This document shows positions 1 to 3,703 of a stretch of 3,703 nucleotides of DNA, piece by piece. The translations under genes were made by a program, and so were the position numbers. The notes below the pieces were generated by a model that searched no databases, was not told the origin of the DNA, and worked only from the letters and a program-made list of their open reading frames with translations. The stretch lies in sequence record X15639.1; one strand, given 5' to 3'. Source of the DNA: Escherichia phage P1. Every line of letters begins with the position of its first letter. Position 1 is the stretch's first letter.

Positions 1-9
1 AATAAATTT
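1..9 (+). promoter_or_regulatory. Partial C1-type operator (Op51-like), truncated by the window edge
   Basis: The window opens with AATAAATTT, which equals the 3' nine bases of the 17-bp asymmetric P1 C1 operator consensus ATTGCTCTAATAAATTT (from memory). Its position upstream of the immI promoter fits, but a 9-mer AT-rich match could be chance. Confidence 0.3.
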
Positions 10-47
10 GTATTTTTAAGTCGCGAATGCTATCTTTTCGCATCATA

Positions 48-76
48 TTGACCTTTTAATCGTTCAGGCTTATAGT
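48..76 (+). promoter_or_regulatory. Sigma70-like promoter, candidate immI promoter driving c4-icd-ant
   Basis: TTGACC at 48-53 (5/6 to TTGACA), exact 17-bp spacer, TATAGT at 71-76 (5/6 to TATAAT), with an AT-rich stretch upstream. Predicted start near 83, ahead of the a1/b1 sites and c4. Confidence 0.45.
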
Positions 77-108
77 TCCACCGTCGTAGCAAATTCTGCG
101 ACCGGTTT

Positions 109-128
109 TGACAGCCTGAATGTTAGTG
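109..128 (+). promoter_or_regulatory. Upstream antisense target sites (a1/b1-like) for the c4 RNA
   Basis: TTGACAG at 109-115 and GTTAGTG at 122-128 are exact complements of CTGTCAA (246-252) and CACTAAC (233-239) in the c4 candidate. The same two motifs recur in the same order at 276-311. Confidence 0.45.
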
Positions 129-198
129 CGGACAACCGCAGATTTCCGATATTGCGGTATTTTTGTGTCCGTAAACCGCGTTACGCCCGAATTATGGT

Positions 199-270
199 GG
201 GGCGTGATGGGGAGGCTTCGGCCTGCTGGTTTCACTAACGCCAGTCTGTCAACCCTGTCACGTCCTGCCA
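199..270 (+). ncRNA. c4: c4-like antisense RNA (immI repressor RNA) with a tRNA-like acceptor end; boundaries approximate
   Basis: GGGGCGT at 199-205 can pair with ACGTCCT at 260-266 (7 bp including G-U pairs), followed by a single base and CCA at 268-270, resembling a tRNA acceptor stem, consistent with the RNase P processing reported for P1/P7 C4. Internal hairpins: AGGC-TTCG-GCCT at 213-224, and a stem 226-229/241-244 whose loop carries b' CACTAAC (233-239). a' CTGTCAA (246-252) follows. b' with flanks (228-240) is complementary over about 12-13 bp to 304-316, covering the icd Shine-Dalgarno. Confidence 0.5.
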
Positions 271-275
271 CCTGT

Positions 276-316
276 TTGACAGCGGGTAGCAGGTTGTTAA
301 ACCTGTTAGTGAGGCC
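276..316 (+). promoter_or_regulatory. Downstream antisense target sites (a2/b2-like) overlapping the icd ribosome-binding site
   Basis: TTGACAG at 276-282 (a2) and GTTAGTGAGGCC at 305-316 (b2). b2 contains the GAGG Shine-Dalgarno (311-314) located 8 nt before the ATG at 323, so c4 pairing would occlude ribosome binding. Confidence 0.5.
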
Positions 317-322
317 GTAACT

Positions 323-565
323 ATGGTTAATGCCAATCCTTGCACACGCCCAGAATTCATCTGGCGTTTCTATTCCTGTAAAAAACACCACTATCACTTC
401 GTTATCGCAGCAACTGAAGACGAAGCACGCTCTCAATTGCCTGATGGCCCTGCATTTTTACTGCCCGTTTTTCTACTAACTCGCGCAATTCACTTAGTTA
501 CTGGAACCTCCCCTTCTCTGCCGACGTTCAGGGGGGTTTATGAAAAAACCTCTCGTCACCCGTAA
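323..565 (+). CDS. icd: Icd-like small protein (80 aa), likely translationally coupled to ant
   Basis: ATG at 323 preceded by GAGG at 8-nt spacing. The ORF ends at 565, overlapping the ant start (540) by 26 nt in a different frame. Position between c4 and ant matches P1 immI order. No recognisable domain by eye; assignment is positional. Confidence 0.5.
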   Translation: MVNANPCTRPEFIWRFYSCKKHHYHFVIAATEDEARSQLPDGPAFLLPVFLLTRAIHLVTGTSPSLPTFRGVYEKTSRHP

Positions 566-1508
566 TGAAATAGCCGAAGCGATCGCTTTGCATACTGCCT
601 GTATGCCGACACGGGAGATCCCCGGCGCAATTGCTAACTATTTCATGATAACCAGGCGTTTTTATACCCGAACAGATAAGGCTGTGATCAACAGGCTACT
701 GATAGCCGAGATCAGGGATTATTTGATTGAACAAGGACGTCTACGTTACGCAACAGTGGCAGCAGAAATAAGAAAGGAGGCACATAGAATGACCGGTAAT
801 AATTTGAATGTTGAAAAAACAGCACCTGTTACGTCAGCTACGCCAGCACCAGCCGTGAATATCATCCCCAACACCGGAGACACAATCGACAGCCAAACAT
901 TGTTGAAGATGGTCAATGAGGCACGCAAGTTATGTGGAGAACCAGAGGTTAGAAACAATAAATTCATCGAAAAAATACTCGATGAACTTGAAGGTGAATT
1001 TTACACAAAAAGTGCAAAATCCCATGGCACAAGGGCTGGGCGCTCTTTTGAGGTCATCACCATGACCTACAAACAAGCCCTGCGAGTCGCCGCGCGCGAG
1101 TCAAAAGCGGTCCGCCGTTCGCTGATCGACAAACTGGAAGAATTGCAGCAGGCAAACTCCCCTGCCCCATCGATCCCCCAAACATTACCAGAAGCTCTAC
1201 GCCTGGCTGCCGAGTTGGCAGAACAGAAAATGCAGCTGGAACAACAGCTGGTGGCCGCAGCCCCTAAAGTAGATTTTGCCGACCGGGTATCAGTGGCTAA
1301 TGGAATCCTGATCGGGAACTTTGCAAAGGTCGTTGGACTTAAGCAAAACGCCCTTTTCTCATGGTTGCGCCAGAACGGCATTCTCATGGCTTTTGGTGCG
1401 CGCAAAAACGTACCGCGCCAACAGTACATCAACGCCGGGTATTTCACGGTGAAAGAAGTGGTGCTGGATGATGAAAATGGCTACCAGATACGGCTGACGC
1501 CCAATTAA
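540..1508 (+). CDS. ant: Antirepressor Ant1 (322 aa): N-terminal extension, Rha/AntA-like domain, ANT/KilAC C-terminal domain; C-terminus looks truncated by a frameshift
   Basis: ATG at 540 preceded by a G-run (531-536). Central region (around residues 115-200) resembles Rha/AntA-type phage regulatory domains. The C-terminal 111 aa (DNA 1173-1505) align at roughly 65% identity with the C-terminus of the downstream KilA-like protein. Pro/Ala/Thr-rich linkers separate the modules. Confidence 0.85.
   Translation: MKKPLVTRNEIAEAIALHTACMPTREIPGAIANYFMITRRFYTRTDKAVINRLLIAEIRDYLIEQGRLRYATVAAEIRKEAHRMTGNNLNVEKTAPVTSATPAPAVNIIPNTGDTIDSQTLLKMVNEARKLCGEPEVRNNKFIEKILDELEGEFYTKSAKSHGTRAGRSFEVITMTYKQALRVAARESKAVRRSLIDKLEELQQANSPAPSIPQTLPEALRLAAELAEQKMQLEQQLVAAAPKVDFADRVSVANGILIGNFAKVVGLKQNALFSWLRQNGILMAFGARKNVPRQQYINAGYFTVKEVVLDDENGYQIRLTPN
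789..1508 (+). CDS. ant: Ant2, in-frame internal initiation product of ant (239 aa as encoded)
   Basis: Perfect AAGGAGG at 774-780, 8 nt upstream of an in-frame ATG at 789. The product length (about 263 aa if the C-terminal frameshift is repaired) is close to the 266-aa KilA paralog. P1 ant is known to give nested Ant1/Ant2 products. Confidence 0.5.
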   Translation: MTGNNLNVEKTAPVTSATPAPAVNIIPNTGDTIDSQTLLKMVNEARKLCGEPEVRNNKFIEKILDELEGEFYTKSAKSHGTRAGRSFEVITMTYKQALRVAARESKAVRRSLIDKLEELQQANSPAPSIPQTLPEALRLAAELAEQKMQLEQQLVAAAPKVDFADRVSVANGILIGNFAKVVGLKQNALFSWLRQNGILMAFGARKNVPRQQYINAGYFTVKEVVLDDENGYQIRLTPN

Positions 1509-1594
1509 CGGGTAAAGGCCAGCAGTGGTTAACTCGCAAGCTACTTGATGCTGGTTTGTTAAAACCAGTAGCAATAGGTTAACAAAAGAAAAAA

Positions 1595-1620
1595 ACCTGC
1601 CAGCAAACTGGCAGGTTTCT
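1595..1620 (+). terminator. Rho-independent terminator downstream of ant
   Basis: Perfect 9-bp stem ACCTGCCAG (1595-1603) / CTGGCAGGT (1608-1616) with loop CAAA, followed by TTTCT. An A-run precedes the stem. Confidence 0.6.
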
Positions 1621-1660
1621 GAGCAGATCGTCCAACCCGATCTGGATCGGGTCAGAAAAA

Positions 1661-1677
1661 TTTGCTCTAATAAATTT
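1661..1677 (+). promoter_or_regulatory. C1 repressor operator-like site (Op53-like) upstream of kilA-repL
   Basis: TTTGCTCTAATAAATTT matches the C1 operator consensus ATTGCTCTAATAAATTT at 16 of 17 positions (consensus from memory), 70 bp upstream of the kilA ATG. TTGCTC within it could serve as the -35 of an overlapping promoter, but no convincing -10 was found. Confidence 0.55.
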
Positions 1678-1695
1678 CGTTTTCTAAGTGCAAAG

Positions 1696-1719
1696 AATCA
1701 CCATTTCGAGCTGGTGATT
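1696..1719. promoter_or_regulatory. Perfect 8-bp inverted repeat with 8-bp spacer in the kilA leader
   Basis: AATCACCA (1696-1703) and TGGTGATT (1712-1719), located between the Op53-like site and the kilA Shine-Dalgarno. Could be a protein-binding palindrome or a leader RNA hairpin. Confidence 0.3.
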
Positions 1720-1746
1720 GAAGGTTGATGCAAATTTGGAGAAAAA

Positions 1747-2547
1747 ATGCAACAAACATTCAATGCGGATATGAATATATCAAACCTTCATCAAAATGTC
1801 GATCCTTCAACCACTCTGCCCGTTATTTGTGGTGTTGAAATTACGACCGACCGCGCTGGCCGTTACAACCTTAATGCTCTACACAGAGCGAGCGGACTCG
1901 GTGCCCATAAAGCGCCAGCTCAATGGCTAAGAACGCTGTCAGCTAAACAGCTCATCGAAGAGCTTGAAAAAGAAACTATGCAGAATTGCATAGTTTCGTT
2001 CGAAGGCCGTGGCGGCGGCACTTTTGCCCATGAATTGCTCGCTGTGGAGTACGCAGGCTGGATTTCTCCCGCGTTTCGGCTGAAGGTAAACCAGACATTT
2101 ATCGACTATCGAACCGGAAGATTACAACCTGCTATTCCGCAGAGTCTCCCTGAAGCTCTCCGTTTGGCTGCCGACCTGGCAGAGCAAAAGCAACGGCTGG
2201 AGCAAAAAATGCTTATGGATGCACCTAAAGTCGAATTCGCTGAACGCGTTGCTACCGCCAGCGGGGTTCTAATCGGCAACTATGCCAAAGTGCTCGGCCT
2301 GGGCCAAAACTATCTCTTCACCTGGTTGCGTGATAACGGAATTCTGATCGCAACCGGTGAACGCAGGAACGTCCCCAAACAAGAATACATATCTCGTGGG
2401 TATTTCACCCTTAAAGAAACCGTGATCGATACAAGCAATGGAAGCAGGATTTCTTTCACGACTCGTATAACCGGCAAAGGTCAGCAGTGGCTGATGAAGC
2501 GATTGCTTGATGCTGGTGTGCTGGTACCTGTCGCGGCAACGCGCTAA
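1747..2547 (+). CDS. kilA: KilA-like protein (266 aa): KilA-N DNA-binding domain plus KilA-C/ANT C-terminal domain
   Basis: GGAG at 1738-1741, 5 nt before the ATG. Residues around 25-125 carry KilA-N hallmarks (YNLNALHRASG, PAQWLR, GRGGGTFAHELLAVEYAGWISPAFRLKV). The C-terminal 137 aa (DNA 2134-2544) is paralogous to the Ant C-terminus. Architecture matches phage P1 KilA. Confidence 0.88.
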   Translation: MQQTFNADMNISNLHQNVDPSTTLPVICGVEITTDRAGRYNLNALHRASGLGAHKAPAQWLRTLSAKQLIEELEKETMQNCIVSFEGRGGGTFAHELLAVEYAGWISPAFRLKVNQTFIDYRTGRLQPAIPQSLPEALRLAADLAEQKQRLEQKMLMDAPKVEFAERVATASGVLIGNYAKVLGLGQNYLFTWLRDNGILIATGERRNVPKQEYISRGYFTLKETVIDTSNGSRISFTTRITGKGQQWLMKRLLDAGVLVPVAATR

Positions 2548-2576
2548 CAGACGTAGTAAGAACCACCAGCATTGTA

Positions 2577-3422
2577 ATGCTGGCTAAAGTCACTTTCCTG
2601 AGCTGTATAACGATGAGCGATTTTACTTTTTCTGGCTATGAATTGGCCTGCTTTGTAACACACTCCGGTCTATCCCGTAGCGCCGGGCATATCCTGTCGC
2701 AATGTGCAAATCTCGCGGCAACAACCAGTGAATACTTCATTCACAAGCCTCACCGCCTGATCGCGGCAGAAACTGGTTATAGCCAATCAACCGTCGTTCG
2801 TGCATTCCGTGAAGCTGTAAACAAAGGAATTCTGTCTGTAGAGATTGTTATCGGCGATCACCGTGAACGTCGCGCTAACCTGTACCGGTTTACACCATCC
2901 TTTTTGGCCTTCGCACAACAAGCCAAAAATGCGCTGATAGAAAGCAAATTAAAGATCTCTTCAGCGGCAACCAAGGTTAAAGCTGTTCTCGCTAAGACAT
3001 TGGCTTTATTTAATTTTTTATCCACACCCCCATGTCAAAATGATACCCCCTCCCCCTGTCAGGATGACGTGGCAATAAAGAATAAGAAGTCACAAGTTAA
3101 AAAAACAAAAAGATCAGTTTCCGGCGGTGCCGGAACAACCAGCCTCAAAAAATTGACTTCATGGATCGCTAAGGCAAAAGCAAAGGCTGACAATCTGCGG
3201 TTATCCAAAAAACGCACTCAAAAACATGAGTTCAAGCAGAAAGTAGAGGCGGCTGCGCGGAAATATGCTTACCTGAAGAACAAGCGTTCGCCTGATATTG
3301 GCGGGATATCAAACTTCGATAACCTACCGCATTGCATGACGGTAAACGAAGCTCTTAATGCGGTTTTAGCCAAAAATAAAGATAACGAACAATGGGGTAT
3401 ACCGGCAGGATTCAGAGGGTAA
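2577..3422 (+). CDS. repL: RepL-like lytic replication protein (281 aa); alternative start at 2613 (269 aa)
   Basis: Long ORF directly after kilA, as in the P1 kilA-repL operon. Winged-helix-like segment (AAETGYSQSTVVRAFREAVNKGIL) and a Lys-rich basic C-terminal tail. No clear Shine-Dalgarno before either candidate ATG. Assignment rests on context and size, not on recognised sequence motifs. Confidence 0.7.
   Translation: MLAKVTFLSCITMSDFTFSGYELACFVTHSGLSRSAGHILSQCANLAATTSEYFIHKPHRLIAAETGYSQSTVVRAFREAVNKGILSVEIVIGDHRERRANLYRFTPSFLAFAQQAKNALIESKLKISSAATKVKAVLAKTLALFNFLSTPPCQNDTPSPCQDDVAIKNKKSQVKKTKRSVSGGAGTTSLKKLTSWIAKAKAKADNLRLSKKRTQKHEFKQKVEAAARKYAYLKNKRSPDIGGISNFDNLPHCMTVNEALNAVLAKNKDNEQWGIPAGFRG
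3001..3070. other. Candidate origin (oriL-like) inside repL: AT-rich tract, perfect DnaA box, imperfect direct repeats
   Basis: AT-rich stretch at 3004-3020. TTATCCACA at 3018-3026 is a perfect DnaA-box 9-mer. Imperfect direct repeats CCCCCATGTCAAAATGAT (3027-3044) and CCCCCTGTCAGGATGAC (3052-3068). The P1 lytic origin is reported to lie within repL (from memory). Confidence 0.35.
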
Positions 3423-3424
3423 TG

Positions 3425-3441
3425 AATTGCTCTAATTATAA
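3425..3441 (+). promoter_or_regulatory. Weak C1 operator-like site just after the repL stop
   Basis: ATTGCTCTAATTATAAC: the first 11 bases match the consensus left part ATTGCTCTAAT exactly, and the right part diverges (about 12 of 17 overall). Confidence 0.25.
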
Positions 3442-3464
3442 CCATGCATACTTTCAACACCTCT

Positions 3465-3509
3465 AGTTTGCCATGAGGCAAACTCATAGGTGTCCTGGTA
3501 AGAGGACAC
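3465..3509 (+). other. Two tandem perfect stem-loops downstream of repL, possible terminator or RNA processing structure
   Basis: AGTTTGCC (3465-3472) / GGCAAACT (3477-3484) with loop ATGA; GTGTCCT (3490-3496) / AGGACAC (3503-3509) with loop GGTAAG. No U-tract follows, so not a canonical intrinsic terminator. Confidence 0.3.
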
Positions 3510-3703
3510 TGTTGCCAAAACTGGACGCCCCATTATTGCAATTAATAAACAACTAACGGACAATTCTACCTAACAATAAGTGGAGTTAACATGTTGAACC
3601 GAAGAACATTTAATGTATTCTGCGATGAATCCTGTCACCTACTAAATAATTATATAATAAGGTCATGGTATTAAATACGCTTTAATATTCCGGTCTGACT
3701 CTT

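Follow-up and report, generated by a model that had tools for sequence, protein, structure and literature searches.

The c4 region of bacteriophage P1 raises the question of where its small antisense RNA begins and ends, and of which bases make up the end that resembles a tRNA. The initial annotation of this locus had proposed a 7-bp stem (199-205 with 260-266), a single unpaired base at 267 and a CCA trinucleotide at 268-270, the RNA extending from 199 to 270. The window, i.e. the whole stretch of DNA that was analysed, comprises 3703 bases. Positions 1-3672 match positions 48148-51819 of the P1 reference AF234172 at 99.8%, the same value being obtained for positions 1-600, and the segment 60-330 is identical base for base. 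The order c4-icd-ant1/2-kilA-repL corresponds to that of the P1 immI region, and the open reading frames of KilA (266 aa) and RepL (281 aa) are in place. Judged from its sequence, the window is the immunity-I / lytic-replicon region of P1.

The window differs from the P1 reference at a few places. One C is missing at about position 447, giving an icd reading frame of 80 instead of 73 aa, and another one at about position 1499, giving an ant1 frame of 322 instead of 347 aa. The last 55 nucleotides or so (3648-3703) diverge from the reference and include a cluster of G-to-A changes at 3673-3687. All of these look like errors of an old sequence record, since the start of the window coincides exactly with that of the old deposit X15639. 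None of the differences touches c4.

The candidate c4 RNA could be identified by sequence comparison as the genuine, experimentally studied c4 gene of P1, and an equivalent 77-nt c4 feature is annotated in GenBank for phage P7. The Rfam family C4 (RF01695) matched positions 190-275 over the full model (1-87) with 68.8 bits (gathering score 45) and an E-value of 1.6e-12. Membership in the family is further reflected in a closing helix around two hairpins, which is backed by covariation. With RNAfold, the segment 196-272 reached -42 kcal/mol (z-score -4.55). The z-scores of the segments 199-270, 195-270, 196-272 and 190-275 (-3.2, -4.4, -4.6 and -4.7, respectively) all indicate folding better than chance. 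Stable tetraloops, as found in the first hairpin of the P1 RNA, are often seen at this position according to the supplement of Weinberg et al. (2010). The coordinates of all features are collected in the table.

Table. Features of the P1 c4 region in window coordinates, and tandem C4 copies in locus coordinates.
Feature	Position	Strand	Description and source
Promoter P1c4 (former P51b)	48-76	+	-35 TTGACC 48-53, -10 TATAGT 71-76; consensus scan, GenBank annotation of AF234172
Precursor leader upstream of C4 (5'), cut off by RNase P	84-195	+	Holds a1 (108-114) and b1 (122-129); ends with A194 U195 (-2, -1); GenBank
Mature C4 antisense RNA, 77 nt	196-272	+	GenBank misc_RNA c4, AF234172 48343-48419
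Closing helix, 5' strand	196-212	+	Pairs with 253-269, 17 bp; G196 is +1; RNAfold, covariation
Acceptor-stem equivalent	196-202 with 263-269		First 7 bp of the closing helix
5' arm of the initial annotation	199-205	+	Inner helix segment +4 to +10, pairs with 260-266
First internal hairpin	213-224	+	AGGC, UUCG tetraloop, GCCU; RNAfold, Rfam alignment
Second internal hairpin	225-245	+	b' loop 232-239; RNAfold, direct reading, GenBank target annotation
Single-stranded junction CUGUCAA, element a'	246-252	+	Direct reading, GenBank
Closing helix, 3' strand	253-269	+	G267:U198, C268:G197, C269:G196
A73-C74-C75, conserved single-stranded 'RCC' 3' tail	270-272	+	Homologue counts, Weinberg alignment
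Downstream targets a2 (276-282) and b2 (305-312)	276-314	+	Overlap the icd Shine-Dalgarno; GenBank, direct reading
icd Shine-Dalgarno GAGG	311-314	+	icd ATG at 323
Tandem C4 copies, L108	1085-1186, 1428-1528, 1785-1885
Tandem C4 copies, L124	3328-3432, 3806-3907
Tandem C4 copies, L069	2859-2963, 3338-3438
Tandem C4 copies, L010	4373-4470, 4606-4702
Tandem C4 copies, L049
Tandem C4 copies, L090

The promoter P1c4 drives the c4-icd-ant precursor transcript, which starts at about position 84, and the Rfam model c4-a1b1 matched positions 70-122 with 51 bits. The leader also gave a match below threshold to IsrK, an Hfq-binding sRNA of Salmonella (83-164, 35.1 bits for a gathering score of 50), which overlaps the motif a1/b1. 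Part of this match is a hairpin (135-140 with 153-158) with UUUUU (160-164) behind it, a terminator-like element between b1 and c4; having a 12-nt loop, the hairpin was not flagged by a simple terminator scan.

A true tRNA or tRNA-like-structure gene was rejected as identity of this RNA: ARAGORN detected no tRNA gene in the window, and an Rfam scan at E-values up to 1 returned no tRNA, tmRNA or tRNA-like-structure family there. A T-arm with a T-loop (UUCRANY) is absent from C4, which has two internal loops: a UUCG tetraloop and, in b', the variable loop UUUCACUAA.

The seven pairs of the initial annotation do exist (G199-U266, G200-C265, G201-C264, G202-U263, C203-G262, G204-C261 and U205-A260, two of them being G-U), but its stem limits do not hold, as these pairs are the inner part of a longer helix, 196-212 with 253-269. 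Likewise, the letters read at 267 (G) and 268-270 (CCA) are right, but G267, C268 and C269 are helical with U198, G197 and G196. RNAfold predicted one unbroken helix (195-212 with 253-270) for the segments 190-275 and 195-270. For the mature RNA 196-272, the predicted helix was 196-212 with 253-269, leaving ACC free, and for the precursor 84-330 it again began at G196 (196-212 with 253-269), with U195 unpaired. The predicted precursor fold also contains a small hairpin between 270-276 and 281-287, which the centroid shortens to 271-276 and 281-286. This predicted hairpin takes in C271, C272 and most of target a2, and might mask both C271 and C272.

The register of the helix end was further addressed with homologues. 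A search for relatives of Icd gave only two loci, which is insufficient for covariation, and it was replaced by a scan of IMG/VR viral contigs with a DNA pattern taken from the conserved core, the ends being left out. About one quarter of the matches proved fortuitous, lying in coding DNA, and were removed by eye and with a covariance model. The covariance model built from 46 diverse matches yielded 101 C4 copies (77 distinct rows) from 94 sources, representing 57 distinct end types. The coordinates of locus L125 are those of the window across the c4 region. As helix lengths differ between homologues, both MAFFT and the covariance model lost the register of the ends: the MAFFT alignment (A2) had the outer helix out of register, some rows of the covariance-model alignment (A3) were still one base off at the ends, and both were set aside. 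Folding of homologues with long flanks by RNAfold was also discarded as noisy, the flanks pairing among themselves. An ends-anchored table was therefore built, for which the outer helix of each row was folded as a mini-hairpin and the rows were anchored at the helix end. The outermost U:A, U:G or A:U pair was stripped if the next inner pair was G:C, and seven rows were set by eye. This rule partly builds in the pair G+1:C72, while the covariation at +2 to +4 and the NCC tail are not presupposed. The opening portion of the curated C4 alignment of Weinberg et al. (2010), taken from their supplement and comprising 47 distinct rows from mostly non-enterobacterial taxa, served as an independent check.

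Covariance analysis across homologues, proposed by the initial annotation itself as a check, backs a different fold from the one it had drawn. Positions +1 and 72 (196:269) were G and C without variation in all 57 end types, and +2:71 (197:268) was paired in 56 of them. The pair +3:70, which is U198:G267 in P1, was formed in 57/57 by six pair types (C:G 21, G:C 18, U:G 10, U:A 6, A:U 1, G:U 1), and +4:69 was equally paired in every end type, also by six pair types. In alignment A4 (ungapped, 57 ends), 91.1% of the cells were paired against 65.0% in shuffles. The covariation score was 0.742, compared to 0.234 after shuffling; when the register was shifted by 1 to 3 columns, it did not exceed 0.153. 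For nine of the outer 10 helix pairs, some homologue has both bases replaced, and 92.5% of cells are paired. The rows consulted from the Weinberg alignment agreed: G+1 and C72 were present in 47/47, and +3:70 was C:G in 21, U:A in 17, U:G in 4 and G:C in 4. The helical state of the three outer pairs 196:269, 197:268 and 198:267 is thus supported by covariation and conservation across homologues.

Beyond the helix, position 73 was A in 36, G in 11, U in 10 and C in none of the 57 end types. Positions 74-75 were CC in 52 and part of a U-run in the other five; where CC was present, position 73 was A or G in 47 of 52. Upstream, -1 was U in 52/57 and -2 was A in 45/57. The consulted Weinberg rows had A 28, G 14, U 4 and C 1 at position 73 (the C belonging to a U-run variant), C74 in 43/47, C75 in 44/47 and U-1 in 42/47. 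Examined as a tRNA-like end, C4 displays a 7-bp stem, N73 and CC, all conserved. In the place of A76, P1 has U273, and across the family this base lacks conservation (C 29, U 16, A 12 of 57).

These data bear directly on the register 199/270, in which RNase P would cut between U198 and G199, G267 would be the discriminator, CCA at 268-270 would be free, and the RNA would measure 72 nt. The seven pairs and the trinucleotide are indeed in the sequence, the segment 199-270 folded alone leaves GCCA free, and CCA is the canonical end of a tRNA. Against this register, the GenBank c4 feature spans 196-272, the passage on C4 in PMC5320573 reports a size of 77 +/- 1 nt with the cleavage site at 'GGT', and the three pairs that would have to be open are conserved, +3:70 covarying without a single unpaired case. 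Moreover, the triplet 71-73 reads CCA in only 33/57 ends, because position 73 varies, whereas CC at 74-75 is found in 52/57. The register 199/270 is therefore regarded as extremely improbable. The ends at 199 and 270 had to be abandoned in favour of 196 and 272, with G196 as the first base of 'GGT'; they are refuted on the very grounds that the initial annotation had set, i.e. ends mapped elsewhere or covariation for a different fold. The initial annotation had missed the register by three bases, and the 3' motif reads ACC instead of CCA. The tRNA-like register in P1 is A194 U195 / G196...C269 followed by A270 C271 C272, with U273 in the place of A76; the stretch G196...C272 agrees with both the annotated 77-nt feature and the 'GGT' site.

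Whether the closing helix functionally extends by one more pair, U195:A270, was considered next to this register. In that case RNase P would have to open a duplex to reach its cleavage site, and the free tail would be reduced to C271 and C272. RNAfold formed this pair in short contexts, it is the outermost pair (u:a, model positions 6 and 82) of the RF01695 consensus, and -1:73 is pairable in 44/57 ends. However, no covariation was detected: 43 of the 52 NCC ends are pairable, with 44.2 expected under independence. U-1 is retained beside U73 in five cases, and C-1 stands beside A73 in four. The minimum-energy fold of 84-330 leaves U195 unpaired, and in ordinary E. coli precursor tRNAs U-1 is common (PMC11143913), as is A73. 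A true -1:73 pair was rejected on the lack of covariation in these 52 homologue ends, and a functional helix including it is judged unlikely. The outermost u:a of Rfam probably reflects U-1 and A73, two determinants of the RNase P site which are each conserved in their own right and happen to be able to pair.

The initial annotation was right in its concept that a tRNA-like acceptor end accounts for 5' processing of C4 by RNase P, which had been published in 1995 (Hartmann et al., as cited in PMC3858429, PMC5499578 and PMC5320573). The C4 precursor is mentioned as RNase P substrate, with reference to the same work, in passages of PMC3858429, PMC11143913, PMC3378863, PMC5499578 and PMC5320573, the last of which places the P1/P7 site at 'GGT' (G196 here) with a product of 77 +/- 1 nt. 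In PMC5499578, C4 is grouped with hairpin-like substrates without T-loop, and their recognition is attributed to pairing of the substrate 3' end with loop L15 and to a protein subunit that binds the 5' leader. PMC11143913 describes how E. coli RNase P RNA pairs G292 with C75, G293 with C74 and U294 with the discriminator, and how A248 stacks on G+1:C72 beside N-1. The same source gives U-1 as the commonest leader base and includes one cryo-EM structure of an A-2 U-1 precursor. The P1 RNA carries these determinants as A194 U195 / G196:C269, the purine A270, C271 and C272. Across C4 homologues, the features contacted by the enzyme (PMC11143913) are conserved and A76 is not. Such a pattern fits selection by RNase P recognition, and not selection by a function for which the CCA end must be complete. 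The conservation of A-2, U-1, G+1:C72, a purine at 73 and C74 C75 in a broad range of homologues also suggests that RNase P processing is a property of the whole C4 family.

The helix could alternatively be only a scaffold or stability element presenting a' and b', with CC playing a role apart from RNase P, such as a stop for 3' exonucleases or a part of the downstream mRNA. Any small RNA would gain stability from a 17-bp helix, and the NCC is not indispensable to the family, being replaced in 5/57 ends by a U-run right after the helix. The conserved set is nevertheless exactly what bacterial RNase P reads out (A-2, U-1, an invariant G+1:C72, a mostly purine position 73, C74 C75; PMC11143913), and cleavage of C4 has been reported experimentally, as cited in PMC3858429, PMC5320573 and PMC5499578. 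A scaffold role and an RNase P role are also not mutually exclusive. A helix that serves as scaffold only is thus held to be highly improbable.

In the five U-run variants (L016:3238-3338, L041:521-621, L113:623-719, L114:428-532 and L121:213-312), the helix is directly followed by 4-5 U in place of N-C-C, and an a2-like target is still located downstream. Their 3' end is probably produced by intrinsic termination and not by processing. Tandem C4 copies were also observed, two to three per locus, about 230-480 nt apart and with differing loop sequences. A contig of 2.9 kb that bears the label 'MAG: Bacillota bacterium' (L004, JAFAFU010000019.1) carries a P1/P7-type c4-icd segment (Icd 84% identical), which is probably mis-binned enterobacterial phage DNA.

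The best explanation, to which a probability of roughly 0.9 is given, is that 196-272 is P1 c4, an antisense RNA cut by RNase P and carrying the tRNA-like end G196...C269-ACC. Its identity, fold, register and the conservation of determinants come from the present analysis, while RNase P cleavage and the antisense mechanism are taken from the literature; the mapped ends 196 and 272 are taken from the GenBank annotation and from a secondary source, with a precision of +/- 1 nt for the 3' end. According to this explanation, the 77-nt RNA would be excised from the longer c4-icd-ant transcript begun at P1c4 (~84), and would fold into the 17-bp closing helix, which bears two small hairpins along with a single-stranded junction of 7 nt. 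The outer end of the helix would mimic the top of a tRNA with A-2, U-1, G+1:C72, at least seven stacked pairs, the unpaired A270 and C271 C272. E. coli RNase P would read this hairpin-like end by pairing GGU of its P15 loop with A73-C74-C75 and placing A248 on G+1:C72 next to U-1, and the cut between U195 and G196 would generate the mature 5' end. For the 3' terminus, C272 (+/- 1), cleavage within the U-rich stretch 273-277 is presumed, after which exonucleases would trim the RNA back as far as CC.

A further step is conceivable, although rather doubtful: C4-type RNAs could use the whole end-maturation pathway of tRNAs, with trimming to CC by tRNA 3' exonucleases and addition of an untemplated A by the host CCA-adding enzyme. 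The mature P1 RNA would then be 196-272 plus A, i.e. 78 nt (within the 77 +/- 1 nt reported), with a true tRNA-like ACCA end. RNase P dependence would in that case span the whole C4 family (hundreds of copies in Proteobacteria), and the U-run variants would form a separate, terminator-made subclass.

The inner part of C4 holds the antisense elements. The b' loop 232-239 (UCACUAAC) is complementary to b2 at 305-312 (GUUAGUGA) in 8/8 positions and to b1 at 122-129 (GUUAGUGC) in 7/8, the match covering GUUAGUG (122-128) with G129 opposite U232. Element a' is complementary in 7/7 positions to UUGACAG of both a2 and a1. In P7, L003 and L004, a' and a2 were found to have changed together. Once freed, C4 would pair via b' with b2 and via a' with a2 ahead of icd, covering the icd ribosome-binding site and thereby blocking antirepressor synthesis. 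This antisense mechanism is a published one, as stated in PMC5320573 and in the Weinberg et al. (2010) supplement. At least six different b' loops were observed on an otherwise P1-identical scaffold (window 231-239; L002, L022, L023, L078, L120 and L003), and the E. coli contig L003 has the b' loop of P1 together with the a' element of P7 and an a2 to match. The varied loops and this mixed type suggest many immunity specificities and recombinant types.

The tRNA-like end of C4 and its processing by RNase P are already known, the P1/P7 RNA having been a textbook non-tRNA substrate of the enzyme since 1995. The value of the present analysis is mainly corrective, with little weight as a discovery: the register is fixed, the conservation of RNase P determinants across homologues is documented, and the outermost u:a pair of the Rfam model is questioned.

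Compared with P1 c4, the locus is the same gene. It shows the same three-helix fold, the same a'/b' elements and a1/b1 and a2/b2 targets, and the same place upstream of icd-ant1/2, kilA and repL, without any difference within the c4 region. With the acceptor end of a tRNA, C4 shares U-1, G+1:C72, at least seven stacked pairs, an unpaired purine at 73 and C74 C75, which are the contacts with A248 and U294-G293-G292 of E. coli RNase P RNA. In contrast to a tRNA, it has no cloverleaf, T-loop or D-arm, its helix counts 17 bp instead of 7 + 5, the place of A76 is taken by the non-conserved U273, and its inner part harbours antisense elements instead of an anticodon. The tRNA-like domain of tmRNA resembles C4 in its 5' end made by RNase P and in an acceptor-like helix with a 3' tail. 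Unlike C4, it has a true T-arm, the alanine identity pair G3:U70 and a CCA end, and it is aminoacylated; P1 C4 has U:G at +3:70 and shows no sign of being charged. The precursor of 4.5S RNA, the M3 RNA of phage phi80 and the CI RNA of the phage-plasmid P4, the hairpin-like non-tRNA substrates of E. coli RNase P with which PMC5499578 groups C4, also combine a long helix with a 3' tail, are cut at the 5' base of the helix and have no T-loop equivalent, and P4 CI RNA is, like C4, a processed immunity RNA. These three belong to separate sequences and families, whereas C4 is excised from the 5' part of the very mRNA that it later represses.
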